64,000 nt of DNA from Eubacteriales bacterium (GTDB lineage: Bacteria; Bacillota; Clostridia; Oscillospirales; CAG-272): the NCBI GenBank assembly GCA_045580325.1, contig JAZNNR010000005.1:3504-67503 (forward strand), written 5' to 3'. The notes below the pieces were generated by a model. The model saw only the letters and a list, made by a program, of their open reading frames with translations. It was not told where the DNA came from and ran no database searches. How positions within the stretch are numbered: the first letter of the stretch is position 1; the number at the start of each line of letters is the position of its first letter. Of the stretch, positions 1 to 16,372 are shown piece by piece. The position numbers were made by a program, and so were the translations under genes.

Positions 1-2243
1 ATCGTCGCAAAGCGCTTCTCGTTATGGCAACCGGATCGGGCAAGACAAGAACTGTAATTGCGCTCTGCAAGGTATTGCTTGATCACGGCTGGGTGAAGAA
101 TATTCTGTTCCTTGCCGATCGTAATTCGCTCGTTACACAGGCAAAGCGTGCCTTTGTGAATATGCTTCCCGACCTCTCTGTAACCAATCTTTGCGAGGAC
201 AAAGAAAACTTTGATTCCCGTTGTGTTTTCTCGACTTATCAGACTATGATGAATTGTATTGATACCGTCAAGGACGAAAACGAGAAAAAACTCTTTACAG
301 TCGGACATTTTGATCTCGTTATAGTGGACGAGGCGCACCGTTCGATCTATAACAAGTACAAGGATATTTTCAATTATTTTGATGCACCTTTGGTTGGACT
401 TACCGCAACGCCGAAGGATGAGATCGATAAGAACACCTATGAGATTTTCGAACTTGAAAACGGCGTTCCTACCTATGGTTATGAGCTTGGACAAGCAGTT
501 ACCGATGGATATCTCGTTGACTTTATGTCAGTCGAGAGTAAACTGAAATTTATTGAGCAGGGGATCGTATATGATGACCTTTCAGAGGAAGATAAAGAGG
601 CATATGAAGATACGTTTGAGGATGAAAACGGCGAACTCCCCGAAAGCATTGCTTCTTCTGCTATTAATGAGTGGGTGTTTAACGAGGACACCATTCGTCA
701 AGTGCTTCATATTTTGATGCAAGACGGTTTGCGCATTGATTATGGCGAAAAACTTGGAAAGACTATCATCTTTGCCAAGAATCACGAGCACGCCGAAAAG
801 ATTCACGAGATATTTGGAAAAGAATATCCCAATCTTCCCGGATACACAAAGGTTATTGACAACTATATGACTTATGCACAGAGTGCGATCGATGAGTTTT
901 CCGATCCAAAGAAATTACCTCAAATTGCGATCTCAGTCGATATGCTTGATACGGGTATTGACGTGCCCGAGGTGCTGAACCTTGTCTTCTTCAAGAAGGT
1001 TATGAGTAAGGCAAAGTTCTGGCAGATGATCGGTCGTGGTACCCGTCGTTGCGATGGACTTATGGACGGTAAGGATAAAGATAAGTTTTTCATCTTCGAC
1101 TTCTGCGGAAACTTTGAGTTCTTCCGCATGAATAACGGCAGACCTACAGCAAATCAGATTGCTTTGCAGGGAGCGATTTTTAAGCTCAAAGCACAGATTG
1201 CTTTTAAGCTTCAAGATCTTGCATATCAGACAACCGAGCTGATCGCATTTAGAAAGACTTTGGTTGATGATATGGTGCGTAAAGTGCGTGAACTCAATAA
1301 GGAGAATTTTGCTGTTCGTCAGCATTTGCGCTACGTAGAACAGTATGCGAATCCCGATAACTATAACTCACTCAGCTACGAGGATACGCTACTCATGGCA
1401 GAAGAACTTGCTCCATTGATTACACCCGACGAAGATGAAGCATCGGCTGTTCGTTTTGATGCTTTAATGTATGGTATTGAGCTTGCATATCTTGCAGGCA
1501 AGAAGTATTCGCGTGCCCGTACCGATCTATATAAAAAAGTCAGCGGAATTGCGCGAGTGGCAAATATTCCCGAGATTATGGTTCAGTCAGAACTGATTAA
1601 CAAGATTCTTCATACCGATTATTTGGATAATGCGGGTATCAATGAATTTGAATATATCCGTGAAAATCTTCGCGATTTGATGAAGTATATTATAGGCAAA
1701 CAAGTAGTCCCCTATATCACTAATTTTAATGATGAGATTCTCTCTGTTGAATGGAACGAATCGGATCTTGAAAGCGATGATCTAAAGAACTATAAAGCAA
1801 AAGCAGAGTTTTATATCCGTCAGCATCAGGACGAGGCGGCAATCGCAAAGTTAAAGAGCAACGTTCCTTTGAGTGCGGAAGATGTTAAGGCGCTTGAGCG
1901 TATTCTGTGGAGTGAGGTTGGTAGTAAAAAGGACTATGAAGCAGAATACGGTGAAAAGCCTCTTGGCGAGTTTGTTCGTGAGATCGTCGGACTTGATATG
2001 ACCGCAGCTAAGGCGGCGTTTGCGGAATATTTAAACGATGTTAATCTTGATGCAGATCAAATTTATTTTGTGAACCAAATCATTGAGTATATCGTACATA
2101 ACGGCGTAATGAAAGATATGTCAGTGCTTCAAGAGCCTCCATTTACTGATAGAGGAAGTATTGTTGAGGTGTTCACCGATATTTCGATTTGGTTGGGTAT
2201 TAGAAACGTAATTGAAAAGATTAACGCAAATGCGGCAGCATAG
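1..2243 (+). CDS. hsdR: Type I restriction endonuclease R subunit (HsdR), N-terminus outside the window
   Basis: Frame is open from base 3 (..RRKALLVMATGSGKT). SF2 helicase motifs are present: ATGSGKT (I), VIVDEAHRS (II), LTATP (III), QMIGRGTR (VI). The C-terminal part (LSAEDVKALERILWSE...FVNQIIEYIVHNG) resembles the EcoEI-R C-terminal domain. Confidence 0.85.
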   Translation, partial: RRKALLVMATGSGKTRTVIALCKVLLDHGWVKNILFLADRNSLVTQAKRAFVNMLPDLSVTNLCEDKENFDSRCVFSTYQTMMNCIDTVKDENEKKLFTVGHFDLVIVDEAHRSIYNKYKDIFNYFDAPLVGLTATPKDEIDKNTYEIFELENGVPTYGYELGQAVTDGYLVDFMSVESKLKFIEQGIVYDDLSEEDKEAYEDTFEDENGELPESIASSAINEWVFNEDTIRQVLHILMQDGLRIDYGEKLGKTIIFAKNHEHAEKIHEIFGKEYPNLPGYTKVIDNYMTYAQSAIDEFSDPKKLPQIAISVDMLDTGIDVPEVLNLVFFKKVMSKAKFWQMIGRGTRRCDGLMDGKDKDKFFIFDFCGNFEFFRMNNGRPTANQIALQGAIFKLKAQIAFKLQDLAYQTTELIAFRKTLVDDMVRKVRELNKENFAVRQHLRYVEQYANPDNYNSLSYEDTLLMAEELAPLITPDEDEASAVRFDALMYGIELAYLAGKKYSRARTDLYKKVSGIARVANIPEIMVQSELINKILHTDYLDNAGINEFEYIRENLRDLMKYIIGKQVVPYITNFNDEILSVEWNESDLESDDLKNYKAKAEFYIRQHQDEAAIAKLKSNVPLSAEDVKALERILWSEVGSKKDYEAEYGEKPLGEFVREIVGLDMTAAKAAFAEYLNDVNLDADQIYFVNQIIEYIVHNGVMKDMSVLQEPPFTDRGSIVEVFTDISIWLGIRNVIEKINANAAA

Positions 2244-2314
2244 TTTCTATTCTCTCTGGACTTCCGCGCCTTTCTGTGATATTGTGTGTGCTACCAAAGA
2301 AGGAGGTAGTACAT

Positions 2315-2587
2315 ATGGTACGGACAAAACAAGTAAATAACGAAAACAGAGCGGTTCTGAATCGGGATTTCCCGAGGCGGGACCGCTTTCTCATTATGGT
2401 GCCGGAGGAGCTGAAGAGGCTTTATCCCAACGCCAAGCTGGAGCACATCAAAATAGCTTTGGAGAGATTCGGCGATTATGAGTGCGGAGAGGGTGAGAGC
2501 AAGATCGAGCTGTTCGGCAAGGTGCTGGCGGCGGTGATCATTGATGAAACCATCGGAAAGAGAGGTGGCGCGCATGAACATCATTGA
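2315..2587 (+). CDS. hypothetical protein (GC-rich element backbone)
   Basis: AAGGAGG lies 7 nt upstream of ATG 2315. 90 aa. No domain recognised. Confidence 0.5.
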   Translation: MVRTKQVNNENRAVLNRDFPRRDRFLIMVPEELKRLYPNAKLEHIKIALERFGDYECGEGESKIELFGKVLAAVIIDETIGKRGGAHEHH

Positions 2588-2846
2588 AGAATTATGGTAT
2601 GGCAACATCTCGCCGTGCGAGCGGGACTTCAAGAAAGGCAGTACATACTCGGAGCTGCTTGGGTACATCGTTAGGCACGAGGAAGACCTGCAAAAGCGGA
2701 TGAACGACGAGGAAAAGGAAATCTTCGAGAAGTTTACCGAATGCACCAACGAAATGTACGGCATCGCGGAGCGGGAGGCGTTCGCAAGAGGCTTCACGCT
2801 TGGCGCCAGGATCATCATCGAAATAATGAATACGGAAATCGAATAA
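2574..2846 (+). CDS. small conserved hypothetical protein of the kind seen in Clostridia phage/ICE regions
   Basis: ATG 2574 follows GAGAGGTGG and overlaps the upstream stop by 14 nt. The N-terminal MNIIEELWYGNISPCE motif is one I recall from small mobile-element proteins; the family name is not certain. Confidence 0.5.
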   Translation: MNIIEELWYGNISPCERDFKKGSTYSELLGYIVRHEEDLQKRMNDEEKEIFEKFTECTNEMYGIAEREAFARGFTLGARIIIEIMNTEIE

Positions 2847-2864
2847 GAGAAAGGGATTACATAT

Positions 2865-3095
2865 ATGAAGAAGTTAATCACCAGTATTATCGCACTGATT
2901 ATGACATTCTTCACAGCATCGAATCAGAGTGCAGATCGACCGCACGTGACCGCCGTAAAATCGCCACATACGGCGATAACGGTGCAGGTGGAGCAAGTAC
3001 CCGAAAAAAGCGAAACACGCGCAGAAACGGCAATTACAGGCAAAGCAACTGAGGTTGAAAGCGCGATAGAAACGAAGGAAAACACGCCTAAATGA
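2865..3095 (+). CDS. small secreted protein (signal-peptide-like N-terminus)
   Basis: MKKLITSIIALIMTFFTASNQSA is a hydrophobic leader. 76 aa. Followed by a hairpin terminator. Confidence 0.4.
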   Translation: MKKLITSIIALIMTFFTASNQSADRPHVTAVKSPHTAITVQVEQVPEKSETRAETAITGKATEVESAIETKENTPK

Positions 3096-3132
3096 TAAAT
3101 GTTTTTAGCCTCAATATTATGTAACTTATTTT

Positions 3133-3177
3133 ATGAACCGATAGGGACAAGCGTGCTCTTATCGGTTCATTTCTATT
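3133..3177 (+). terminator. intrinsic terminator after the small ORF cluster
   Basis: ATGAACCGATA (3133-3143) pairs with TATCGGTTCAT (3160-3170) and is followed by TTCTATT. Confidence 0.45.
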
Positions 3178-3276
3178 GTAATACTTTTTTAAAAAAGGTA
3201 AAATGCAATCCATATTGTTACCCAATAAAACATTTTACACAATTTTAATGTAAAATACTTTTATTTAAGGAGGTAA

Positions 3277-3894
<618 letters not shown>

Positions 3895-3902
3895 CGTTAC
3901 AA

Positions 3903-3928
3903 CTATCATAAGCTACACCTTTTGATAG
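3903..3928. repeat. left hix-like recombination site (12-2-12): CTATCATAAGCT-AC-ACCTTTTGATAG
   Basis: Read directly. It is an inverted copy of 4050-4075 (23/26). Each site is itself an imperfect palindrome. It starts 8 nt after the recombinase stop. Confidence 0.75.
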
Positions 3929-3945
3929 GCACAACTATTTAAATT

Positions 3946-3974
3946 AGTATATCATAAATATGTAGAAAATTCAA
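3946..3974 (-). promoter_or_regulatory. sigmaA-type promoter inside the invertible segment, currently pointing toward the recombinase gene (OFF for the operon)
   Basis: The minus strand reads TTGAAT (3974-3969), a 17-nt spacer, then TGaTATACT (-10 at 3951-3946). Confidence 0.55.
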
Positions 3975-4049
3975 GTCATTTAGCGATTCAATTTGACAAA
4001 ATTTCGAAAAAAGTTACAGATTTTTCATCCAACGACTTAAACGAGACCA

Positions 4050-4075
4050 TTATCAAAAGGTGTACCTTATGATAA
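4050..4075. repeat. right hix-like recombination site: TTATCAAAAGGT-GT-ACCTTATGATAA
   Basis: Reverse complement of the left site, with the core dinucleotide inverted (GT versus AC). The half-site TTATCAAAA matches the Hin hix half-site TTATCAAAAACC as I recall it. Confidence 0.75.
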
Positions 4076-4134
4076 TGCTCTCACACCAAATGTTGGCCAA
4101 GGAATGATGGATTTGATAAAGGAGAAAATCGAAA

Positions 4135-6819
4135 ATGTCTGCAAGCTACATATCTAATGAAAAACTAACAACAGGAGAATTCATTGCCCTTTCTTCTTTT
4201 GAAATTACTTCAATCCCGCATGTTAAAATTGTCGATAATGGTAAATTGAGTACCTCTGAGGTTTTAGAAAAGTATAAAGCCGAATTTGGAAATTTACTAA
4301 AAGAGATATATCAAGTGTACAGAACCATAAGTGTTTCTGCAGGATATTCAAAGGATATCTCAGTTGAAATTTTTTGGAAAACAACGGAAGTGAAAAATCA
4401 GCCGTTTAAAGCAAACATACGGTTATTTATAATCGTTCGTGCAATTGATAGCGACAAAAGTTCCGTAAATAAGACTGTAGAGTCTATGGTTCGGCTATGT
4501 CAAGCATCATTGACTCTACAAAAATACGAATACAAAACATTGTTGTATGAAGAGCTTTCTCAAATCGTTAAAAGTGTTGACGATACAAACATTCGCGCAA
4601 TTGTCAAAGAAGAAAAGGTTGAAAACTTGCAAAATCAACTGTTACCGCAGTGTTACTCGTTCGACAGAATTACTCCTTCAAACAGTGATTTAAGCCGAAT
4701 AGTTAATGCTTTGATTGAATATCCCGATTGCGCTATTTCAATTCAATTAATTCCCAATATTTATGACAATAGTGAGATTATTGAGATTGATAAAACCACT
4801 CAAATGCTTGAAACACTTAATAAAGGAGTGTCGGACCATAACATGGGCAACGTAAGTTTCGCACTCGCAGGCAAGCACGCAGCTAATTATAGATATTACT
4901 CTGAAAATAAAACAAACGAGTTGTTTTTCTTTAACATACTCGTGCTTGGCAATAGCGAAGCTGTTTCGAATATTTCCAGCCGCATATATGGGCAATTATC
5001 ATCCGGAACGGGGGCATCCACAAATCTCAAAATGGTTTCTCTTACACAGACGGAGGTGTCGAAGGATAACAATTTTTATCCATTACCTTGGGCTGTAAAC
5101 GAAATCTTGATTGGAAAAAACAGAAACAATCAGATTTGGAATTCGGGACAATTCTCCAATGCATTATACAGATTGCCATACATTATCACTGTAGAGGAGG
5201 CGGCAGAGTTTTTTGCTTTGCCTGTTGGCAGTGATCGAATTTCTGCCGGTTTGAATGTAAATGAATCCGGGAAAGACAGCAAAACATATTCATCAAATAT
5301 AATCAATGCCGGAGATATAACCGTAGGTAAACTACGTTCTTCTGCCAAGGGAGATACTATTGGTTTTTCTCTGAAAGATTTAGCAAAACATATGCTCGTT
5401 GTCGGCACTCCCGGTTCGGGCAAAACAACTTTTTCTGTTAGTCTCTTGGATAGATTATGGAAGGATCATAAAATTCCTTTCTTGGTTATCGAGCCGGCTA
5501 AGAATGAGTATCGTGCGCTTGTGCAAAGCATTCCTGAACTTCAAGTTTTTACGCCCGGCAAAAACCATATTTCTCCGTTCGTATTCAACCCTTTTGTGCC
5601 GCCAAAGAATGTTAAGCTAGAAACATATAAATCCACTTTGAAAACTGCATTTGCAGCAGCCGTTTCAATGTCTACGCCTCTTGACAAAATTTTTGAGGAA
5701 TCTATTAATAACTGCTATTCTGATTTTAGGTGGCTTGACACATATACTGTTGACGACAAAGGAAAGACTTTCAATATTTCTGACTTTATCAAGTGTTTCC
5801 AACAAACATTTGATGAAATCGGATATACGGGTGATGCCAAGAATATTGGCCGAGCAGGTGTAGTAAGACTAAATAGCCTTGTGAATCTGTTTGACAATTA
5901 TTTTTCAATTCCTATCGAAGATATTTTGCAGAAACCAACGATTATCGAACTGGCAGCTATTGAAAACAGTGATCAAAAAGCATTGATAATTGCACTGCTT
6001 TTGCTTTCAATTCTTGCATATGTTAATTCCAATTATGTTGGTGAAGGTGGCTTGAAAAACGTAATATTGCTAGAAGAGGCGCATGTACTTTTAGATGCAG
6101 ATACCAATGCAGGACAAGGAGATGCCAATCCTAGTGCTATTGCCCAACGACTTGTTAAAAGAATGTTAGCAGAAATACGTTCCTATGGAGTTGGATTAAT
6201 TATTGCCGATCAATCACCTAGAAAAGTTTCCACGGACGTAGTTGCTCTAACTGATATGAAGATGGTCTTCCGTCTAGTAGAGAGCGCGGACAAACAGATT
6301 ATTGGCGATAGTACGAATATGTCCGAAACTCAGATTCAACGAATGTCAAAATTGAAACCGGGCGAAGCATTTTTGTTCTTTAACAAATTGGAAGAGCCGG
6401 AAGAAGTTATTACTCCGGATTACCGCTTAGAAAATAACATAAGCATCTCGCTTTCCGATGAGGGTATCAAATCCTTGTCAACATATTGGAACGACAAGGC
6501 AGATAAACTTCGGCCATATCCTCAATGCGAGCTTTGTTCGTCTTGCCAACACACGTGCGTTTACTCAAGGAGAGTTCTTGCGCGAGAAATAGCAAGAAGA
6601 ATTTATGTTAAAAACTTCAAACCCGATACTTCAGATTTCGATATTTTGAAAAAAGTCTTTGGGAAGATCAGCAGACTAATTCAAGATGAGTTAAATGACG
6701 AGCCCTTCACTTCCGAACTGCTCTTATGTGTAAAAGTTCATTTATGGAGAAGGATACGCTATGGAACCAAAATCAGTATTACTGATACTCTAATTGAAAA
6801 CTCACTAAAAAAACAATAA
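4135..6819 (+). CDS. HerA/FtsK-superfamily P-loop ATPase (DUF87-like) with an uncharacterised N-terminal region of about 400 aa
   Basis: Walker A GTPGSGKTT (5404-5430), Walker B VILLEEAH (6061-6084), LIIADQSPRKV...MKMVFRL. AAGGAG RBS. C-terminal Cys cluster CELCSSCQHTC. No TM segment. Confidence 0.8.
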   Translation: MSASYISNEKLTTGEFIALSSFEITSIPHVKIVDNGKLSTSEVLEKYKAEFGNLLKEIYQVYRTISVSAGYSKDISVEIFWKTTEVKNQPFKANIRLFIIVRAIDSDKSSVNKTVESMVRLCQASLTLQKYEYKTLLYEELSQIVKSVDDTNIRAIVKEEKVENLQNQLLPQCYSFDRITPSNSDLSRIVNALIEYPDCAISIQLIPNIYDNSEIIEIDKTTQMLETLNKGVSDHNMGNVSFALAGKHAANYRYYSENKTNELFFFNILVLGNSEAVSNISSRIYGQLSSGTGASTNLKMVSLTQTEVSKDNNFYPLPWAVNEILIGKNRNNQIWNSGQFSNALYRLPYIITVEEAAEFFALPVGSDRISAGLNVNESGKDSKTYSSNIINAGDITVGKLRSSAKGDTIGFSLKDLAKHMLVVGTPGSGKTTFSVSLLDRLWKDHKIPFLVIEPAKNEYRALVQSIPELQVFTPGKNHISPFVFNPFVPPKNVKLETYKSTLKTAFAAAVSMSTPLDKIFEESINNCYSDFRWLDTYTVDDKGKTFNISDFIKCFQQTFDEIGYTGDAKNIGRAGVVRLNSLVNLFDNYFSIPIEDILQKPTIIELAAIENSDQKALIIALLLLSILAYVNSNYVGEGGLKNVILLEEAHVLLDADTNAGQGDANPSAIAQRLVKRMLAEIRSYGVGLIIADQSPRKVSTDVVALTDMKMVFRLVESADKQIIGDSTNMSETQIQRMSKLKPGEAFLFFNKLEEPEEVITPDYRLENNISISLSDEGIKSLSTYWNDKADKLRPYPQCELCSSCQHTCVYSRRVLAREIARRIYVKNFKPDTSDFDILKKVFGKISRLIQDELNDEPFTSELLLCVKVHLWRRIRYGTKISITDTLIENSLKKQ

Positions 6820-6849
6820 GTAATGAATGTCTTTAATGGAGGAATAAAA

Positions 6850-8499
6850 ATGGGAGATGAATTTGATACAGACCTTGGGTCAACCGACTTAAGTGATTCT
6901 TCGGACACAAACACCTCTGAAGTTGAGGATACTTCTGACTCTTCGGAAATCGCATCAAGCGAAATACTTGAAGATACTTCAGAACTTTCTGATAATTTTG
7001 CTGAAGATGCAGGATTTGAGTTAACAGAAGACTCATACACATCTGAAACAGATGCTAATTTTGAAAGCACTGATGATTTGATTTCGGAGGACAGTATCGA
7101 CTACGACAATGAAGATGTTGATATGATGGAACAAGACGAAATTGCTGAGGATTCTTTCGGCGAAGAAAGCGATGTTGTTTCAGAGAATCAGAGCGAATAT
7201 GTCCCCGAAGATGTCGAAATGGATGAAAACACGTTTGAGTCTGATCAAGGCGAAGAACTTCAAGAAGATGTTTTAGACGATTCCAATGAAGACGATCCTC
7301 CCAAGGTTTTGAAACGTGATGAATTTGATCTGCTTAAAACCGGAAACGATGCTATCAATGAGAGGTTAGAAGCACAAGCTGATAATTATCGTGATAAGGG
7401 ACTTTCGGAAGAAGAAATTGAGGAACGTTTGGCCGAGGATAAACAATACTATCAAAAAGAATTTTTAGAAGATGCTTTCCCCGGACAAGAAGTTTCTCCT
7501 AATGTTTTCAATGGTTTTTCGGAGGCAGACAAAAAAGACTTGAGCCAAGAAACAAGGAATGACCAATTTGTTGATGATCAAAATGATGTGAATGAAATTC
7601 AACAAGGCGATAGCAATTTTAAAGACTCAGTTTCAGATGGTGTAGGCGATTTTGATGAACATGAGTTAAGCGATAATGATCTTACAGTTGATGACGGTAT
7701 TATGACCGAGGAGGTTAAAGGTGAAGAAACAGAATTTCCCGAAACAGATGAAGTTTCAGTAGCTAATATTGAAAGCGAGATCTCCACAAACATCAATAAT
7801 GACGAAATGACGGACGAGAATTCATATTTTGAAAATGATGATGTTGATGAGGATGAGCAGAACGAAGTTGCTCCTGATGACAATTCTGTTGATAGGAAAT
7901 TGAACTTAGAAGTTGATGACAGTGATTCTCCATCTTCTAAAATGAGTGACGACTCTTTGTTTGAGGATAATAAGGAAACCGATTACATATACACTGAAAC
8001 CGACTATGGTAAACACGCATCAGGTCAATTGGACTTGGAAAAAGGTAAAAGAAGTGCTTATGCTCAACGAACGGTTGGCGGTGAAGATCGACAAGAATAC
8101 GACGATGGAGGTCATTTGATTGGAAGTCGATTCGCCGGATCGGGAAGTTATGAAAACCTAGATGCACAGTCGCGTGATCTTAATCGCGGTGAGTACAAAA
8201 AGATGGAGAACGAATGGGCAAAATCGCTTGAGAATGGCGAAAGAGTCTATGTCGATGTTAACACATATAAGTCTAACGGCTCGGATAGACCAGACTCGTT
8301 TATGGGATATTCAATTGCAGAGGATGGCTCTGGGACACGTTCAATTGATGCGTTTTCTTTTCAAAACGAGAGTGTAGAAACACAAGAAGAATGGGAAGAA
8401 ATAGTTTCTAGTACAGATATGCAAAATGATTTTAGTAATGCAATGAAATATACAAACGAGCAAAAGAAAATAATCGATGAAGAAAAAGATACCGAATAA
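6850..8499 (+). CDS. acidic low-complexity N-terminal region (about 390 aa) fused to a C-terminal DNA/RNA non-specific endonuclease (Endonuclease_NS_2, EsaD/YeeF-type beta-beta-alpha-Me)
   Basis: GGAGG lies before ATG 6850. The D/E/S-rich sequence is followed by DDGGHLIGSRFAGSGSYENLDAQSRDLNRGEYKKMENEW...RPDSFMGY. No signal peptide, LXG or WXG features. Confidence 0.8.
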   Translation: MGDEFDTDLGSTDLSDSSDTNTSEVEDTSDSSEIASSEILEDTSELSDNFAEDAGFELTEDSYTSETDANFESTDDLISEDSIDYDNEDVDMMEQDEIAEDSFGEESDVVSENQSEYVPEDVEMDENTFESDQGEELQEDVLDDSNEDDPPKVLKRDEFDLLKTGNDAINERLEAQADNYRDKGLSEEEIEERLAEDKQYYQKEFLEDAFPGQEVSPNVFNGFSEADKKDLSQETRNDQFVDDQNDVNEIQQGDSNFKDSVSDGVGDFDEHELSDNDLTVDDGIMTEEVKGEETEFPETDEVSVANIESEISTNINNDEMTDENSYFENDDVDEDEQNEVAPDDNSVDRKLNLEVDDSDSPSSKMSDDSLFEDNKETDYIYTETDYGKHASGQLDLEKGKRSAYAQRTVGGEDRQEYDDGGHLIGSRFAGSGSYENLDAQSRDLNRGEYKKMENEWAKSLENGERVYVDVNTYKSNGSDRPDSFMGYSIAEDGSGTRSIDAFSFQNESVETQEEWEEIVSSTDMQNDFSNAMKYTNEQKKIIDEEKDTE

Positions 8500-8514
8500 A
8501 AGGAGAAAATAATT

Positions 8515-9696
8515 ATGGCACTTTTCGAAAAAAACGCAAATGAAGCTGCATATGCGGGTGGCAAAAAGCATTGGGCTGATGTAATAAAAAACACTGGTCC
8601 CGGAGAACTGTTGATTTGGCGGCAGCCTGAAGAAGATTTCAATACTAATTCAACGCTAGTGGTTATGCCAGGAGAAGAAGCTATTTTTATCAAAGGGGGC
8701 ACAATTGAACAGGTTTTTGAAAATGGTACATACCAACTCTCTACTGAAAATTATCCCTTCATAAGCAGATTGCGTAACGCCTTTACCGGTGGCGTCAGTA
8801 CATTCAATTGTGTGGTTTATTTCGTTCGTAAAGCTGACAGCATGGAAATTCTTTGGGGAACCGATTCTCCCATTCAAGTACGTGATAAACATTGGGGGGT
8901 TCGAACTGATGCGAAAGCCAGAGGAGCATACAAAGTCAGAATAACAAATCCGGCAAAATTTTTAGAAAAACTTGTCGGAAACAATGTTCAATATCAAACT
9001 CAAGATGATTTGAACAAGTATTTCCGTAATGAGCTTCAGGGAAAAGTAAAATCGGCTGTATCAAAGTTCCTTAATTCTTTAACTCAAGAACTTATTGGGT
9101 TGGATGCTTATTTGGACGAATTGTCCGAACATGTTGAGCCTTACATAAATGAAGCTTTGGAATATTATGGTCTCAAGTGCGTTAAGTTTTCACTATCGGG
9201 CTTGGATATCGATGTGACAAAATACGATGTTTTGGATGAGTCTCAAATCGGACTGATAACCAAAGACCGTTTTGAAAGAGGAAGAGAATTTGAATATAGA
9301 ACCGAGAAAGCGGGAGTTAATATTCAGGGCGAAGATTGGGGCCGTATTCAAGGCGTTGAAGTTATCCGAGATTTAGCAAACAATCCAGGTGCCGGTGGAG
9401 TTGCAGCCGCAGGCGCAGGAATGGGAATGGGTCTTGGGGCCGCAGGAGTATTCAGCACAGTGGCACAACAAGTTTTTTCACCAGCAAATAACGCATTTGC
9501 ACTTCAACAAAACACACCACCTCAAAGCGGGCCTTCCGGAAGATTTACTCAGCAAAGTGCCGCAAATCCTACAACTCAGCCGATTGCTGAAGATCCAGTT
9601 GAGGTTCTTGGTAAATTAAAGAGACTTTTAGATGCGGGACTTATTGAGCAAGCGGAATACGATGCTAAGAAAGCAGAAATTCTAAGCAGAATGTGA
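8515..9696 (+). CDS. SPFH/band-7 protein of the COG4260 type (B. subtilis YdjI-like) with a Gly/Ala/Gln-rich linker and a C-terminal SHOCT domain
   Basis: LIWRQPEEDFNTNSTLVVMPGEEAIFIKGG...YQLSTENYPFIS...VVYFVRK...WGTDSPIQVRD fits the pattern. The C-terminal VEVLGKLKRLLDAGLIEQAEYDAKKAEIL is SHOCT-like. Confidence 0.8.
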   Translation: MALFEKNANEAAYAGGKKHWADVIKNTGPGELLIWRQPEEDFNTNSTLVVMPGEEAIFIKGGTIEQVFENGTYQLSTENYPFISRLRNAFTGGVSTFNCVVYFVRKADSMEILWGTDSPIQVRDKHWGVRTDAKARGAYKVRITNPAKFLEKLVGNNVQYQTQDDLNKYFRNELQGKVKSAVSKFLNSLTQELIGLDAYLDELSEHVEPYINEALEYYGLKCVKFSLSGLDIDVTKYDVLDESQIGLITKDRFERGREFEYRTEKAGVNIQGEDWGRIQGVEVIRDLANNPGAGGVAAAGAGMGMGLGAAGVFSTVAQQVFSPANNAFALQQNTPPQSGPSGRFTQQSAANPTTQPIAEDPVEVLGKLKRLLDAGLIEQAEYDAKKAEILSRM

Positions 9697-9707
9697 GGTG
9701 ATCTGCT

Positions 9708-10598
9708 TTGCCATTAGTTCCTGCAAAGTGCACACAATGTGGAGCAAGTTTAACTGTTGATCCATCTAAGGAAGCAGCGATTTGTCCATATTGTAATCAA
9801 GCATATATCGTGGAAAAAGCTATCAACTATTACAATACCACCAACGTAACAAATATAGACACATTACACGCTGATAAAGTTATTGTTGAAAGCAGTGATT
9901 CGGCAGAAAATTTGCTTAGGGCTGGAGAAACGCATATAAGATTAAAGAATTATATCGAAGCCGTGTTGAAATTTGAAGAAATGTGCAATAAATTCCCACA
10001 TAATTTTCGAGCATGGTATGGTCGACTCAGGGCTTTAACTAATGATTTCATAACATATGAGAAATTTAAGGAGTATTCGCCACACGACAAATGGGAGTTT
10101 TTCACCAAAGCAATGGATCAACACACCAAAAACACTTCGAAAACAAATCTTAAATATTGTGCGGATTTACTTGGTGTTTGTGAAAGATATTGCATTATAA
10201 TTGCTGACGAATTACCTAAACCCGAGAATTATCTTGAGACCATTAATTCGGTTTTATCGTTTGTTAAAAATGTACTTGTTGATCATAGCAAAAGTATCAG
10301 AGAGAATTATGATCCAATCGAAAAACGCTGCGCATCATTAATCGAAACGATGGAACTGAAAATGGCAAAATTATCCCCAAGAAAAATAAAGAATGTCCAA
10401 ACTGTGTTGAAAAGTGATGAAGTGTGTCATTGGAGTTGTTACCAAGAGAGATATATCCAAGAAATAGTTGAACTTCATAATGAAACCAAACGTGCCGAAT
10501 CCGAACGTCGTCGCATATGGAACAGATTGGACATTGACCTCTTCAGTACAAACGTGGAAAAGTTACAAATTCTGCGACAAAAATATTTAAAGGAGTGA
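9708..10598 (+). CDS. zinc-ribbon protein with a TPR-like helical region
   Basis: TTG start 6 nt after GAGGTG. CTQCG...CPYCN ribbon, then LLRAGETHIRLKNYIEAVLKFEEM..AWYGRL. Confidence 0.6.
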   Translation: MPLVPAKCTQCGASLTVDPSKEAAICPYCNQAYIVEKAINYYNTTNVTNIDTLHADKVIVESSDSAENLLRAGETHIRLKNYIEAVLKFEEMCNKFPHNFRAWYGRLRALTNDFITYEKFKEYSPHDKWEFFTKAMDQHTKNTSKTNLKYCADLLGVCERYCIIIADELPKPENYLETINSVLSFVKNVLVDHSKSIRENYDPIEKRCASLIETMELKMAKLSPRKIKNVQTVLKSDEVCHWSCYQERYIQEIVELHNETKRAESERRRIWNRLDIDLFSTNVEKLQILRQKYLKE

Positions 10599-10603
10599 TA
10601 ACG

Positions 10604-11284
10604 ATGAGAAAGAAAACAATATTATACCTTTTACTTGATTTGATATTTCTTGTGATTTTTAACTTGATATTTTTTATGGTGGGAGGGGCTGAACACCCAG
10701 CATCTGTGTGGCTTTCCTATGGTTTTATTCATTTTGCTTACATAATGCTAATCATAACACCTGTATTGACGAAAAAAAGCAGTAGCAAAGCGGTTTTGGG
10801 ATTCCCTTTATATACAGTTTCAGCCATATACTTTATTATTGAGTTTGTAGTGGGTTTGATTTTTATATTTATTAGAAGCGAATTCTACACGGTTGCATTA
10901 ATTGTTCAGGTTATATTGCTAGGCATATATGTACTGCTGCTTATTCCAAATCTTATTGCTAATGAGCAAACGGCAGAAAACATAGAACTACACGAAAGAG
11001 AAGTAGCATATATTAAAGAGGCTTCTTCAAGAGTAAGAAGTCTTGTTGACAAGATGAGCGACAAAGGCGCTAATAGGGCTATAGAAGCTGTTTACGACTT
11101 GCTTCATTCTAGTCCAACGCGCTCTCATTCATCTGTTGAGCTTCTCGAAGAAGATATCATTAATAAAGTGACGGAACTTGACGTAGCTGTTTGTTCAGAT
11201 GACATTTCAAAAGTTTTATCTACCTCAAAAGAACTGATTGCTATAGTTGAAGAGCGAAACAGAAAATTGAAACTCTATCAATAA
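10604..11284 (+). CDS. membrane protein with four predicted TM helices and a cytoplasmic helical C-terminal domain
   Basis: AAAGGAG lies 8 nt before ATG 10604. There are four hydrophobic stretches in the first 120 aa or so. Nearly abuts the upstream stop. Confidence 0.65.
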   Translation: MRKKTILYLLLDLIFLVIFNLIFFMVGGAEHPASVWLSYGFIHFAYIMLIITPVLTKKSSSKAVLGFPLYTVSAIYFIIEFVVGLIFIFIRSEFYTVALIVQVILLGIYVLLLIPNLIANEQTAENIELHEREVAYIKEASSRVRSLVDKMSDKGANRAIEAVYDLLHSSPTRSHSSVELLEEDIINKVTELDVAVCSDDISKVLSTSKELIAIVEERNRKLKLYQ

Positions 11285-11310
11285 AAAATATAAATTGGAG
11301 GACATAAAAA

Positions 11311-12246
11311 ATGATGCAAATTAAATGTGAAATGTGTGGAAGTTCAGATTTGGTGAAAGAGAATTCGCTTTATGTATGCAAGCACTGCGGCATGAAGTAC
11401 TCTCCCGAAGAAGCTAAAAAAATGATGGTGGAAATCGAGGGCGCTGTAAAAATAGACAATACCGAGGAAATTGCAAACCTTTATGTACTAGCAAAAAGAG
11501 CAAAAGAAAGTGAGAATTATAAAGAAGCACAAAATTATTATAGTCAAATATTGCTAAAAGCACCAACAGATTGGGAGGCTGCGTTTTATTCGCTGATTTT
11601 TGACGCTACTAACTGCGTAATTGCACAAATTGCAGAATCTTGCGATAAAATAACTTTGGGCATTCCTAGTGTTATTAAACTTGTAAAAAATACAGTTACA
11701 GACAGAGAAGAACTAAAACGCATTTGCAACGAAATGGCAAACGAAGTAAATTGGGCAGTTGGACTCTTTTTCGAAACTGCTCAAAAGCACTTTGATTATG
11801 ATTGGCATAAAAAAGAAGAGGCGGAGAGTAGTGCGGTTTATGCTGCGTACGAATTTGCTTATGAATTAAGAATGGCTTTCCCTAATAAGGAATATATTGA
11901 CTCGGAGATTTTATGTATAAAACAAGCTATGTTAATGCAAAGCCGAATGTATACTTGCGATGCTAAACACAGAGAAATATACATAAATAACGCTCGATAT
12001 CTCAAGCAATATTGTCCATCATATGAAGTACCTTTAATAGGAGGTGTCACCACACAACAAATCGAATCAGGGCTCTCGGTGGAAGAAATTGAAGCAGCAT
12101 ATATAAAAGACTGTAAAGAAATAGAAGAACAGACAAAAGCAGAGGACGAAAAATCAAAGAAAAAATTTTGGACTATTGTTATTGTGATTGCTGTAGTGAT
12201 GTACATTTTGGGTCGTTTAGGTATAGGACTGTTGTTGGGTTTTTAA
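11311..12246 (+). CDS. zinc-ribbon / TPR-like protein with a C-terminal TM anchor (paralogue 1)
   Basis: MMQIKCEMCGSS..VCKHCGMKYSPEEAKKMM. C-terminal FWTIVIVIAVVMYILGRLGIGLLLGF. GGAGG RBS. Confidence 0.7.
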   Translation: MMQIKCEMCGSSDLVKENSLYVCKHCGMKYSPEEAKKMMVEIEGAVKIDNTEEIANLYVLAKRAKESENYKEAQNYYSQILLKAPTDWEAAFYSLIFDATNCVIAQIAESCDKITLGIPSVIKLVKNTVTDREELKRICNEMANEVNWAVGLFFETAQKHFDYDWHKKEEAESSAVYAAYEFAYELRMAFPNKEYIDSEILCIKQAMLMQSRMYTCDAKHREIYINNARYLKQYCPSYEVPLIGGVTTQQIESGLSVEEIEAAYIKDCKEIEEQTKAEDEKSKKKFWTIVIVIAVVMYILGRLGIGLLLGF

Positions 12247-12312
12247 CTTTCCAAATACATAAATAATTTGAAAATAAAAATATGAAGTTACATAATTAAC
12301 TGGAGGTATAAA

Positions 12313-13284
12313 ATGATGCAAATTAAGTGCGAAATGTGTGGAAGTTCAAATATGGTGAAAGAGGATTCGCTTTATGTGTGCAAGCACTGCGGTATGAAGT
12401 ATTCTCCCGAAGAAGCAAAAAAAATGATGGTTGAAATCGAAGGCGCGGTAAAGATTGATGATACTGAAGAACTTTCAAATTTATATGTACTTGCAAGGCG
12501 TGCTAGAGATAACAAGGATACAGACGGAATTTTGAAGTATTATGGCGATATATTAAGAAAGGATCCAATGAGTTGGGAAGCTTCTCTTTTTCTGCTAGTT
12601 TATGATCATACCGAAAGAGTGTTGGCAGAAACTGAGCAATCATGTCAAAAATTTCTTAATGGAATCTCGTCTATTGTCGATTTGGTAAAAGATACCGTTG
12701 AAGATGACGAAGAGCGAAAAAATGCTTATAGCGAAGTATCACGATATACGGTATGGGCTACTGAAAATATTCTTTCCGTAACTCAAAAGTACGAGGATAT
12801 ATTTAAGGAAAGGCGCAGTCAGATATTAACTTACTTACACAATATTACATATACGTTTGCTAATCAAATGCAGAATAATTTCCCAAAAGGAGAATATGCT
12901 GACTCTATAATATTGTGTGCAAAACAAGGCGTGAAGCTTCAAAGTTTAAAAATGAACGCTTATGTACCACTAAACAATGAGGCAGAAAGAAAAACATATT
13001 TGGAATGGGTTAGATATATAAAACAATATGATCCACGATATTGGGCTCCTTCAATACCGGGAGTTACCTCACAACAAATAGAATCAGGACATACTATAGA
13101 AGAAATTGAAGAAGAAAATTTACTACAGGAGGTAAAAGAGCTAGAAGAAAACGAAAAAGCAGAAAAAAAAGCATCAGTTCTCGGATGCGTTGTGGTATTA
13201 ATCCTTTTGATATTAGCATTTTTCTTCGTGAAGTGGGCATTCGGTTGGATTTTGGGAGATATCGGAAAGTGGTTTGGGCTTTAA
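12313..13284 (+). CDS. zinc-ribbon / TPR-like protein with a C-terminal TM anchor (paralogue 2)
   Basis: The first 50 codons or so are nearly identical to 11311-11460. Same architecture as paralogue 1. GGAGG RBS. Confidence 0.7.
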   Translation: MMQIKCEMCGSSNMVKEDSLYVCKHCGMKYSPEEAKKMMVEIEGAVKIDDTEELSNLYVLARRARDNKDTDGILKYYGDILRKDPMSWEASLFLLVYDHTERVLAETEQSCQKFLNGISSIVDLVKDTVEDDEERKNAYSEVSRYTVWATENILSVTQKYEDIFKERRSQILTYLHNITYTFANQMQNNFPKGEYADSIILCAKQGVKLQSLKMNAYVPLNNEAERKTYLEWVRYIKQYDPRYWAPSIPGVTSQQIESGHTIEEIEEENLLQEVKELEENEKAEKKASVLGCVVVLILLILAFFFVKWAFGWILGDIGKWFGL

Positions 13285-13307
13285 TATTACATACTACCTA
13301 TAATGAA

Positions 13308-13342
13308 AGTGTCGAGGCAGATAGACTCCTCGGCACTTTTTA
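13308..13342 (+). terminator. intrinsic terminator ending the 7-gene operon
   Basis: AGTGTCGAGG...CCTCGGCACT stem followed by TTTTT. Confidence 0.6.
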
Positions 13343-13539
13343 ATATCATCGCACAAACTAACAAAGAAACCGTAGAATGCATAGAGGAAGGTGAAGACCG
13401 TCCCGGCGAGGGAAAACACTTCTAAGTTTTAAATAGGTGTGACAACACCTACCATAAAGATAGGGCATGACATACACTGATTTTTCAGTGGTATCGTCAT
13501 GCTCTTTTTATTTGTCTCTTTTCAGCTTAGGGGTGTAAA

Positions 13540-14050
13540 TGTAAATAAATTGTTAATTGTCAAAATTTCTTTGCTCAAATCGCAAAAAAAATTGCCCAAT
13601 AAAGGATGGAGGGGTTTTTCGGTAAACAAATTGTAAATTCGTAAAAAACATGGTAGTCAAATCGAAAAAAAGTCAGCAATAAAGGATGAGGGTACATTTC
13701 ATTAAGAAAAAGTTTCGTCCAAGCGAAAAAATAGTGTGGAATATATAGTGAGAGCATTTTTTCATCAATCGAGCTTTTATTTGATAAAAGTCGCAAATTT
13801 TGGGGCTATATAATTGGAGGCTAAAATTTGCTTCGTCCAAAATGTAAAAAAGTCAGTAATAAAAGATAGGCGCACCTTTCCTAAATAATTCAAAAAAGTG
13901 CCTAATAAAGGATAGAGGAATTTTTCCTAAAAACTCAACAAAAGTCAACAATAAAGGATGAGGGCACTTTCCGTAAATAAATTGTAAACTCTCAAAAAAT
14001 CCGGCGCTCAAATCCGAAAAAAGTGTGGGATATAAGGTGAGAGGTTGTAA
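13540..14050 (+). repeat. iteron-like array: seven same-orientation copies of a 40-45 bp unit plus three GTAAAYAAATTGTAAA boxes
   Basis: Copies at 13584-13620, 13665-13700, 13725-13755, 13846-13881, 13892-13927, 13939-13972 and 14016-14044. The array lies just upstream of the RepA-like gene. Confidence 0.7.
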
Positions 14051-14134
14051 AAATGACGTTCTCGCTGGCTACCTATTAGAGGGATCTTTTTCTCAAAGAT
14101 AAAAATACATCAATAAAACCAAGGAGGTAAACAA

Positions 14135-14971
14135 ATGGACAAACAAATGAAACTGGTCTCGATCTCCGAGATCGAACTGCAAGAGGTGGAGTGGTTGTGG
14201 TATCCGTATATCCCGTTCGGGAAGATCACGATTATCCAAGGCGATCCGGGTGAGGGTAAAACTACGCTCGGGCTCAGGCTTGCGGCGGCGTGCTCAAACG
14301 GGAGCGGTTTTCCCGGTATGGAAGAGCGACCGCCCATCAGTGTGATCTATCAGACTGCCGAGGATGGTCTCGGCGACACGGTGAAACCGCGACTGATGGA
14401 AGCGGAGGCAAACGAGAATCTTATCTTCAACATCAGTGAAGAAACCGACGTGCTGACGCTGAAGGACGTGCGCATCGAGGCGGCGATCAAAGCAACGGGT
14501 GCAAGGCTAATGATCTTCGATCCCATCCAAGGCTACGTTGGAGAGGACACCGACATCAACCGTGCAAACGAGATCCGCACCGTGATGCGCGGTATCGCAA
14601 GGATCGCCGAGGAAACGGGTTGCGCGATTGTCTTCGTGGGGCATCTGAACAAGATGAAAGGAACGAACAGCGCATACCGCGGACTTGGTACGATTGACTT
14701 TCGTGCATCGGCGCGAAGCGTGCTTCTCGTCGGAAGACTTCGCAAGATGCCAAACGTGCGTGTCATCGTTCACGACAAGTCGTCCCTTGCGCCCGAAGGA
14801 AAATCGATGGCGTTCAATCTCGGTAACGAAGAGGGATTCAAGTGGCTCGATGGTTACGACAAGATCACAGCGGACGAGCTTCTCGGCGGCGGTGAAACTG
14901 AAACGAAGACTGACATGGCAGAGGACTTGATTCTCGATATGCTTTCCTCGGGTGAGTTTGTTCCCGCCTAA
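14135..14971 (+). CDS. RecA-fold AAA_25 / RepA-DnaB-like replication ATPase of integrative elements
   Basis: Walker A GDPGEGKTT, Walker B RLMIFDPIQ, VFVGHLNK. AAGGAGG RBS. Ends at TAA 14969-14971. Confidence 0.8.
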   Translation: MDKQMKLVSISEIELQEVEWLWYPYIPFGKITIIQGDPGEGKTTLGLRLAAACSNGSGFPGMEERPPISVIYQTAEDGLGDTVKPRLMEAEANENLIFNISEETDVLTLKDVRIEAAIKATGARLMIFDPIQGYVGEDTDINRANEIRTVMRGIARIAEETGCAIVFVGHLNKMKGTNSAYRGLGTIDFRASARSVLLVGRLRKMPNVRVIVHDKSSLAPEGKSMAFNLGNEEGFKWLDGYDKITADELLGGGETETKTDMAEDLILDMLSSGEFVPA

Positions 14972-15115
14972 AAGATCTTCGAAAAAGCAAAGGAGCTGGG
15001 CATTTCACAGCGCACAGTTAACGAGGCTAAGCTGAAGAACAAAAGCATTGTTACGAAGAAGATCGGCAAGCGTTGGTTTTGGGCGATCCCCGATAGCGCA
15101 GAAGAAACGGCATGA
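14972..15115 (+). other. in-frame continuation after the TAA that encodes an HTH-like tail (KIFEKAKELGISQRTVNEAKLKNK..KRWFWAIP)
   Basis: 47 sense codons in the same frame directly after the stop. This resembles the C-terminal DNA-binding tail I recall on full-length homologues. Confidence 0.5.
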
Positions 15116-15483
15116 AGATTGTAACATTGCAGAGTGTCTCTGTCGCAAGGTTGAAGATTGCAACCTTTGGAAAGATCACGCACAGTGTCACTTGCATTGT
15201 TGCATTGTTTTCGAGAATTTGCGCAAATTCCCCAAACTTATTTTAGGGCAGGTTAAAGTGCAGGCGACTCACACCCGCACATTCACAGCGAACGGCAACA
15301 GCCGACCGCAAAAAGTGGCGTAAATAAAGGCTTTTCCGCCTCCGACCGATTTTTCTCGGGTGGCTGGCAAATTTCAAAATCACACGCGAAAAGTGTGAGC
15401 AAACACCCGATTATGGCGGTACGTCCCGCGTTTTTCGGGTGTGAAAGAGAGAAAAATTATCGATTAATTGAAAGGAAGTATTT

Positions 15484-15906
15484 ATGACAAAGACACAAGA
15501 ACCGGTAAGAAAAACAGTTTATCTTGAAGAAAAGCTTGTCAGACAAGCAGAAATTCTCTTCGGTGAAGCGGAGGTGGACTCCTTTTCTGCATTCGTGACC
15601 AAAGCGATTGAGAATTATATCACCAAGCTTGTCATCGACAAGAACGGCGATCTCCTCTCCAAAGAGATCCGTAAGGCCATCCACGAAGAGATCAATCCCA
15701 CCAACACCCGCATCTCCAAAGGGCTGTACCGATACGCTATCGAGCTTGATATGCTTGCTCAGATGGTGGCGTATCAGCATGACTTCCGATACGAAGAGAT
15801 CGTTGGAATGCGCAAGGAAGCCAACAAGTACGTAGCGCAGATGCGCGGTAAGATCAATGTGGATGAGCTGATCTGCGAGGTGCACGGTGAATACTACGAC
15901 GATTAA
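15484..15906 (+). CDS. hypothetical protein, possibly ribbon-helix-helix at the N-terminus
   Basis: KTVYLEEKLVRQAEILF..FSAFVTKAIENYI pattern. GAAAGGAAG RBS. Confidence 0.55.
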   Translation: MTKTQEPVRKTVYLEEKLVRQAEILFGEAEVDSFSAFVTKAIENYITKLVIDKNGDLLSKEIRKAIHEEINPTNTRISKGLYRYAIELDMLAQMVAYQHDFRYEEIVGMRKEANKYVAQMRGKINVDELICEVHGEYYDD

Positions 15907-15919
15907 AAAGGAGAAATCT

Positions 15920-16303
15920 ATGAGTAAAATGACAGACATTCGTTTCAGATTACAAATTGCAGGAGGTAATATGCGTATGATCAAGAGAGACGTTTTCGAA
16001 TATTTCAAGAAGGAGCCCGACGTGATGCAGGTCAAGGACGTGGTGCGGCTGCTCCATTGCAGCAAGAACACTGTGTACAAGCTGATCCACGAGGGGCGCA
16101 TTGACAGCATCAAAATCGGTCGGAACATTCTGATTCCCAAGACCGCGCTGGTGGAAATGATGGTGAACGAAAGATATTATCAAATTATTTGTCCCTACAA
16201 TCCCGATTCTCTCTGGACTATGAAGGAGCGTAACCGTATAATTGCTTCGAACAAGAATTCCAAAACGAAAGGAGGCAAAGGCGTGAATGAAGATTATCAA
16301 TAA
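15920..16303 (+). CDS. excisionase-family helix-turn-helix DNA-binding protein
   Basis: AAGGAG lies 6 nt before ATG 15920. MQVKDVVRLLHCSKNTVYKLIHEGRIDSIKIGRNILIPK is a typical Xis/MerR-type HTH. Directly upstream of the integrase. Confidence 0.7.
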   Translation: MSKMTDIRFRLQIAGGNMRMIKRDVFEYFKKEPDVMQVKDVVRLLHCSKNTVYKLIHEGRIDSIKIGRNILIPKTALVEMMVNERYYQIICPYNPDSLWTMKERNRIIASNKNSKTKGGKGVNEDYQ

Positions 16304-16372
16304 CCGAAACTTTAACTATCACGCCATCCATTTGTGCTCCGCACAAATGCAAAGTAAGAAAGGAGATAAAGC

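Follow-up and report, generated by a model that had tools for sequence, protein, structure and literature searches.

A putative serine-invertase promoter switch, sequenced in its OFF orientation, upstream of a seven-gene operon in a Clostridia genome

Introduction

A small serine recombinase gene and a run of seven tightly spaced genes lie next to each other on a contig of an Eubacteriales bacterium, separated by a short intergenic region with two inverted repeats. Between the repeats sits a promoter that faces the recombinase gene and points away from the seven genes. Is this region a switch that turns the seven genes on and off by DNA inversion, and if so, in which state was it sequenced? 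The question reaches beyond the single locus. A 2026 paper found that small serine recombinases mark anti-phage defence loci and left their role open, naming inversion as one possibility (PMC13552941).

We analysed the window, a stretch of 64,000 nucleotides that holds the recombinase gene, the repeats and the downstream genes, and compared it with related loci. A sequence-only reading had proposed an invertible promoter switch of the Hin type, captured OFF. Our results indicate that the region is a phase-variation switch, in which a serine invertase drives an invertible promoter controlling the seven-gene operon and which was sequenced in the OFF state; we give this reading a probability of roughly 80%. 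The mechanism is already well known in kind, and the locus is of value for the family of switches behind it and for its connection with recombinase-associated defence.

Results

The recombination sites and the segment between them

The invertase gene ends in a TAA stop codon (3892-3894), followed by an 8-nt spacer (CGTTACAA) and the left recombination site (Table 1). The right site, read as its reverse complement, is identical to the left at 23 of 26 positions. A repeat search recovered the same pair as arms at 3904-3927 and 4051-4074 (24 nt, 96% complementary) with 123 nt between them. Each site is also an imperfect palindrome in its own right, matching at 10/12 positions in the left site and 11/12 in the right. 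The two core dinucleotides are 147 bp apart, or 14.0 helical turns of about 10.5 bp each, and are the same core in inverted orientation. As the cores are mutually inverted, recombination between them should produce inversion and not deletion. The sequence-only reading had described this arrangement of two inverted 26-nt sites starting 8 nt past the stop codon, each a 12-2-12 imperfect palindrome, with inverted AC/GT cores; sequence reading and the repeat search reproduced all of its coordinates.

Table 1. Positions of the predicted switch, its genes and its signals in the window
Feature	Position	Strand	Details	Basis
Candidate invertase-gene promoter	3176-3204	plus	TTGTAA-17-TAAAAT; weak, 9/12	Consensus scan only
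Putative portable module: invertase promoter region, invertase gene and switch to ~5 nt past right site	3201-4080	plus		blastn
Small serine recombinase, presumed invertase	3283-3894	plus	203 aa	PF00239, E=3e-29
Terminator-like 10-bp hairpin and T-run	3785-3818	minus	Inside 3' end of invertase gene	Terminator scan
Left recombination site	3903-3928		CTATCATAAGCT-AC-ACCTTTTGATAG, 12-2-12, core AC 3915-3916	Fits family consensus
Invertible segment	3917-4061		145 bp between both core dinucleotides
Predicted segment promoter	3946-3974	minus	Sigma-70-type TTGAAT-17-(TG)a-TATACT, facing invertase gene (OFF)	Consensus scan
Extended 19+2+19 palindrome around right site	4043-4082		89% complementary; current (OFF) orientation only	Repeat search
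Right recombination site	4050-4075		TTATCAAAAGGT-GT-ACCTTATGATAA, 12-2-12, core GT 4062-4063
RBS AAGGAG (4119-4124) and ATG of first cargo gene	4119-4137	plus		Sequence reading
Seven tightly spaced cargo genes	4135-13284	plus	Gaps of -4 to 67 nt	ORF list; Pfam, PADLOC and NCBIfam scans

The site pair is specific to this place. A degenerate site pattern allowing up to three mismatches matched the two sites and nothing else in the 64 kb window, and 100 shuffled sequences gave no match. The interior of the segment occurs once in the window, and the region matched no Rfam family. Scans of metagenome and viral collections with a DNA pattern for the conserved interior sequence (3970-4019) returned only chance matches, in AT-rich coding DNA and without sites.

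Three of the four half-sites are typical of the family consensus described below, and the inner halves do not differ from each other. The weak one is the left outer half-site (TATCATAAGCT), which carries a C (at 3913) where 96% of family half-sites carry a G and falls at the 5th percentile of family half-site scores. The same G-to-C deviation at half-site position -2 was also found in the right site of another family switch (L105). Extended palindromes similar to that around the window's right site, with different flank sequences, were seen in L001, L097, L105 and L109; the family-wide pattern was too mixed to use the palindrome as an independent marker of orientation. If the segment were flipped, the ON junctions would read CGTTACAACTATCATAAGCTACACCTTTTGATAATGGTCTCG on the left and GTTGTGCCTATCAAAAGGTGTACCTTATGATAATGCTCTC on the right, and a diagnostic flipped junction sequence would be, for example, CTATCATAAGCTACACCTTTTGATAATGGTCTCG.

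The segment promoter and the predicted transcripts

All promoters, transcription starts and terminators given here are consensus predictions. The -10 element of the segment promoter (3951-3946 on the minus strand) ends 18 nt from the 24-nt core of the left site. Mirroring the segment moves the promoter to the plus strand at 4004-4032, with its -10 element at 4027-4032, and gives a predicted ON-state 5' UTR of about 95 nt before the ATG at 4135, right site included. On the plus strand, the scan detected no promoter-like site between 4076 and 4134. Three proposals of the sequence-only reading were thus upheld: the best promoter of the segment is TTGAAT-17-TATACT with an upstream TG (minus strand, 3974-3946), firing towards the invertase; flipping would place it about 95 nt upstream of ATG 4135; and no comparable promoter lies between 4076 and 4134.

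The interval from the invertase gene to the operon (3894-4135) has no predicted plus-strand terminator, and the terminator scan found no T-run after the sites on that strand. Since read-through from the invertase gene is therefore possible, OFF may mean low rather than zero operon expression, further lowered by the convergent promoter. On the minus strand, the predicted OFF-state transcript (3945 to 3780, 166 nt) includes the terminator-like hairpin and folds below shuffled controls (z=-4.0). Close relatives retain the hairpin stem although its sequence varies (AAGACTTCTG, AAGACTTCC, AACTTCC and AGCTTCC); distant ones lack it. The hairpin probably ends an antisense transcript started by the OFF-oriented promoter. 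In some relatives the stem is retained at the cost of amino-acid changes in the invertase (L/S to P/T).

The invertase and an observed inversion in a sister locus

Full-length alignments of the recombinase were obtained with Sin/Bin3 (2r0q, E=2e-31), gamma-delta resolvase (3e-22) and Gin (5e-18). Alignment to Sin and gamma-delta resolvase indicated that the catalytic motifs are intact, namely YVRVSS-DQ (with Ser11 and Arg9) and DRLGR. An exact-protein look-up returned no record of the window's own protein. Close relatives (80-90% identity) number in the thousands in gut metagenomes, and recombinases about 50% identical are found on plasmids.

Direct evidence for inversion came from a sister locus, P0032, whose invertase is 86% identical to that of the window. 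Nine contigs encode exactly the same P0032 protein, and in each the sites follow the stop codon at +10 and +157, the same placement as in the window. Of these contigs, seven (L007-L012 and L015) are in the window's orientation. In the remaining two (L013 and L014), which come from other samples, the 145 bp between the cores are exactly reverse-complemented (145/145). Over 400 nt on the upstream side and 380 nt on the downstream side the two orientations have identical sequence, and the left core is still AC and the right core still GT. This is the product expected of a serine recombinase that cuts at the central dinucleotide. Both flipped contigs have the promoter (TTGAAA-17-TATACT) directed at the genes downstream. 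As the inversion appears in two independent assemblies and assembler k-mers are longer than the repeats, it is unlikely to be an assembly artefact. Three further sets of contigs with the same invertase (P0084, P0092 and P0041) contained no flipped copies, each set having a single orientation.

We also looked at the orientation of the window's own locus. Its flipped state was not found: the window and two contigs with a first operon gene 98% identical to that of the window are all OFF, one of these contigs beginning inside the segment. The left outer half-site also deviates from the family consensus in L098. The window's own copy may switch slowly or be locked, possibly owing to its weak left outer half-site (C for G, 5th percentile). 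We infer that it still flips.

A family of related switches

One genome per species was scanned, yielding 80 loci with related invertases (64-82% identity). These are nearly all from Clostridia, including Lachnospiraceae, Oscillospiraceae, Acutalibacteraceae and Ruminococcus. In about 44 of the 80 loci a site pair begins 2-30 nt past the end of the invertase gene, with the consensus TRTCAAAARGT-GT/AC-ACYTTTTGAYA, the conservation of which is somewhat inflated as the sites were found with the consensus pattern. With the exception of two loci, each locus combines one AC core and one GT core (43 of each). Palindromic cores (GC, AT) were seen in L020 and L085; such cores would not alone fix the relative orientation of the sites.

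A sigma-70-type promoter scoring at least 9.5, with its -10 element ending 16-19 nt from a site, is present in 34 of 45 switches, compared with an average of 0.8 and at most 3 in shuffled controls and with 0-2 for other distance windows. The promoter faces the invertase in 32 loci and the cargo in 6, and in one further, separately fetched locus it also faces the cargo. Most assemblies, the window and its two closest relatives included, thus hold the promoter towards the invertase (OFF).

The distance between cores falls into discrete classes across the 45 switches, at 115-117, 126-127, 135-139, 145-148, 156-158, 166, 177, 188, 200 and 223 bp. Each class corresponds to an integer number of steps of about 10.5 bp (Rayleigh R=0.80, a value reached by none of 5000 jittered sets), although the family statistics are optimistic because the loci are phylogenetically related. 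That all ten length classes fit this rule indicates that both sites lie on the same helix face, as expected for synapsis across a very short loop. In 38 of 44 switches, the right site is followed within 450 nt by the start of a gene that is on the same strand and has a Shine-Dalgarno sequence; in 28 of these the start is 16-134 nt away.

Many contigs end or start inside the switch (L002-L006, L016, L017, L022, L023, L035, L071, L097, L115-L118 and L144-L149). Four contig ends are exactly at the right-site centre and two are 24 nt past the invertase stop codon. These breaks are consistent with mixed orientations breaking assemblies. Other loci appear incomplete. In P0025 and P0003 only the left site is present, followed by an IS transposase gene or by other sequence. 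L150-L159 and L002-L006 likewise keep only the left site, which in L150-L159 is accompanied by interior-like sequence in the cargo-facing orientation and then by an IS-type (rve) transposase gene. Cassettes with only a left site are probably disrupted switches. Separately, a Clostridia-type cassette was filed under Escherichia coli, Synergistaceae and Alloprevotella bins (L062, L083 and L096), reflecting either binning contamination or horizontal transfer.

Proposed mechanism and alternative readings

Taken together, three lines of evidence support the earlier proposal of an invertible promoter switch captured OFF: the exact inversion in the sister locus, the conservation of promoter and phasing across about 45 members, and the window promoter facing the invertase. 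In the mechanism that we propose, the 203-aa recombinase (3283-3894) would bind as dimers to the palindromic sites (3903-3928 and 4050-4075). Staggered cuts at the central AC/GT dinucleotides and rotation of the half-complexes would then invert the 145 bp between the cores. In the OFF state the segment promoter, about 18 nt from the left site, would start transcription near 3939, which would cross that site and enter the invertase gene at its 3' end; there a short antisense RNA is probably terminated, near 3790, by the minus-strand hairpin and T-run. The operon, without a predicted promoter of its own in this region, would be off, or low through read-through. Inversion to the ON state would put the promoter at 4004-4032, with transcription starting at about 4039, some 95 nt before ATG 4135. 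We infer both the transcription start and the effect of flipping on expression from these predicted signals.

The switch could instead be a relic, a family member that decayed in the window lineage and is now locked with its promoter away from the operon. All three sequences of this lineage are OFF, and the left outer half-site is at the 5th percentile in the window and deviates from the consensus in L098 too. We nevertheless consider a relic unlikely, though it deserves some weight. Three of the four half-sites are consensus-like with identical inner halves, the invertase reading frame is intact with its catalytic motifs, the -2 deviation from G to C recurs in the right site of L105, and OFF is the majority state also in loci shown to flip. 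It is more improbable still that the flip mainly regulates the invertase, through antisense RNA in one orientation, whilst the operon is read through from the invertase promoter either way. This would fit the lack of a predicted plus-strand terminator between 3894 and 4135, the structured antisense RNA of about 150 nt predicted for the OFF state and ended by a hairpin inside the invertase gene, and a report that an Enterococcus recombinase, distantly related to that of the window, is co-transcribed with its defence gene (PMC13552941). However, what is conserved across unrelated cargoes is a promoter placed to fire across the site towards same-strand cargo, and antisense control of the invertase is compatible with cargo control rather than opposed to it.

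We see very little room for the view that the sites serve resolution, excision or integration, as res-like sites for multimer resolution or for moving neighbouring genes, in place of promoter inversion. Sin and gamma-delta, the nearest relatives of solved structure, are indeed resolvases, the module ends about 5 nt past the right site, and such recombinases have been hypothesised to mobilise defence genes (PMC13552941). Against this, the cores are mutually inverted and an exact inversion is observed in nature in the P0032 contigs, whilst the 64 kb window holds no further site that could flank the cargo and no accessory sub-sites of differing spacing. Finally, AT-rich intergenic DNA often contains palindromes, and a chance inverted repeat, a transcription terminator or a MITE could on that ground be suspected. 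None of the 100 shuffles matched the site pattern, dozens of species keep the placement of the sites with respect to the invertase stop codon, the window holds a single copy of the interior, and the sites are followed by no T-run on the plus strand. The shuffles, the conserved position and the exact inversion effectively refute this last group.

Comparison with known systems

The phase-variation switch proposed here shares its basic design with Hin/hix and the Gin/Cin/Pin (Din) systems, in which a small serine recombinase likewise acts with two inverted 26-bp sites of 12-2-12 layout and matching asymmetric 2-bp cores. With Hin/hix it also has in common a promoter inside the segment that switches a downstream operon. 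By contrast, the Hin segment is about 1 kb or more, much longer than the 147 bp of the window, whose invertase gene lies outside the segment and whose family has spacings quantised by helical turns. We know of no Fis or enhancer for these bacteria. The 9/12 match between the window half-site and a hix half-site, proposed in the sequence-only reading, agrees with hixL as given in the published Hin-family site table, TTCTTGAAAACC AA GGTTTTTGATAA (PMC3241671), the outer 9 nt of one hix half-site being identical to the window-type half-site (TTATCAAAA). The inner triplet of the window family is GGT as opposed to ACC in Din sites, its cores are GT/AC as opposed to AA/GA, and the sites depart from the dix consensus (PMC3241671). 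The enzyme, too, is nearer Sin/Bin3 (2e-31) and gamma-delta (3e-22) than Gin (5e-18), as judged by alignment E-values. The description 'Hin-type' therefore holds for chemistry and site layout but not for family membership, given the protein's closeness to Sin/Bin3, the departure from the dix consensus and the invertase gene outside the segment.

Mpi of Bacteroides fragilis is also a serine recombinase that flips short promoter segments in a gut anaerobe, and the segments under its control are about 170-230 bp. Mpi acts in trans on many dispersed promoters, whereas invertases of the window family adjoin their own switch and only two sites occur in the 64 kb window. The repeat sequences differ, and the window protein is far below the cut-off of the Mpi model NCBIfam NF009949 (46.8 against 272 bits). 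The Sin/Bin3/beta-type resolvase-invertases of Gram-positive plasmids and transposons are the nearest solved relatives by sequence (2r0q, E=2e-31). These enzymes resolve or invert plasmid DNA at res sites, which include accessory sub-sites, whereas in the window two equivalent crossover-type sites flank a promoter. The features of a res site are lacking here: the two 12-2-12 sites are equivalent, their cores are inverted and there are no accessory sub-sites of differing spacing. Two features of an inverton were found in the window, namely an internal promoter computationally predicted to be able to face the regulated gene and a recombinase gene whose stop codon is 8 nt from the left site; both orientations were seen in the P0032 cassette, and only OFF in the three sequences of the window's own locus.

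We also considered the RADS bait locus EF_B0058-EF_B0059 on pTEF2 of Enterococcus faecalis, where EF_B0058 is 35% identical to the window invertase. It was ruled out as an instance of the same switch, as the two genes are separated by a 54-nt gap with no comparable repeat pair; the switch is thus not a feature of the bait locus. In the searchable literature we found no paper printing the site motif and no survey describing the family, and the hCom2 inverton survey supplements yielded nothing. The bulk lists of PhaseFinder (Jiang et al. 2019) may include members.

A putative portable module and its cargo

In blastn comparisons, window positions 3201-4080 are 84% identical to L001 and positions 3282-4080 are 79% identical to L007. 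In both cases homology stops at 4080, about 5 nt past the right site, and the genes beyond are unrelated. The junction with new cargo is thus at the recombination site itself, a position that may be a clue to how the module becomes joined to other genes. First cargo genes were compared across 39 switches and are very diverse. Defence-related examples include BrxA (BREX), a PD-T4-6 kinase, type IV restriction enzymes, PbeA, mad6, HerA, HEPN and helicases. Surface-related examples include LRR/BspA proteins, glycosyltransferases, GtrII, MBOAT, collagen repeats, pilin/VWA proteins and AMP-binding enzymes. With a shared module in front of such unrelated and diverse cargo, the invertase and its switch behave as a portable unit.

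We tentatively extend this to a broader view, to which we give slightly less than even odds. The invertase and switch, about 880 bp together, would be a portable phase-variation module grafted onto dozens of unrelated anti-phage and surface cargoes of gut Clostridia, would account for part of the linkage between recombinases and defence, would synapse across a very tight loop and would possibly capture cargo through its own site. If this holds, it provides a concrete mechanism for part of the unexplained linkage of small serine recombinases to defence genes, and the strict n x 10.5 bp spacing would mean that the enzyme brings its two sites into synapsis over a very tight loop of DNA. Given the sharp junction, new cargo may be captured at the invertase's own site.

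If the switch works as proposed, a costly or self-harming seven-gene system with an ATPase and a nuclease would be expressed in only part of the population, a form of bet-hedging. Such bet-hedging is best known from Bacteroides capsules and Salmonella flagella. For this clade, the switch offers a testable answer to the question raised in 2026 about recombinases beside anti-phage genes, namely that they flip a promoter. Genome annotation and defence surveys would miscount switched-off systems as 'present', and assemblies break at such switches. A compact module of about 0.9 kb with a defined site and a helical-phase rule could also serve as a genetic tool.

Genomic setting and neighbourhood of the seven genes

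The gene upstream in the window is a truncated type I restriction R subunit, of which the C-terminal part remains (24-2243), followed by about 1 kb without a recognisable gene (2243-3283). Downstream of the operon are an AAA_25 ATPase (14135-14971) and then a tyrosine integrase (16373-17557). GC content is 35-40% over 4-14 kb compared with 42-46% in the housekeeping part of the window (DnaG, EF-G). In view of the restriction remnant, the ATPase and integrase and the GC drop over the operon, positions 1-17557, operon included, look like a genomic island.

The seven genes probably form one operon, as suggested by their spacing. They encode a HerA/FtsK-like ATPase (DUF87), an acidic-linker protein with Endonuclease_NS_2, an SPFH and SHOCT protein, two proteins without a match and two zinc-ribbon paralogues. 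Relatives of the HerA-like ATPase (4135-8499) with 79-81% identity (L099-L101 and L121-L140) usually occur without the invertase, behind HTH, TPR, 212-aa and YidD-like genes. In the loci fetched with enough flank (L099-L101) they adjoin a tyrosine integrase gene. On their 3' side are acidic-repeat proteins of very variable length with toxin-like C-termini (TNT and Gln_amidase, with Endonuclease_NS_2 in the window). Such a neighbourhood resembles that of polymorphic toxins more than any named defence system.
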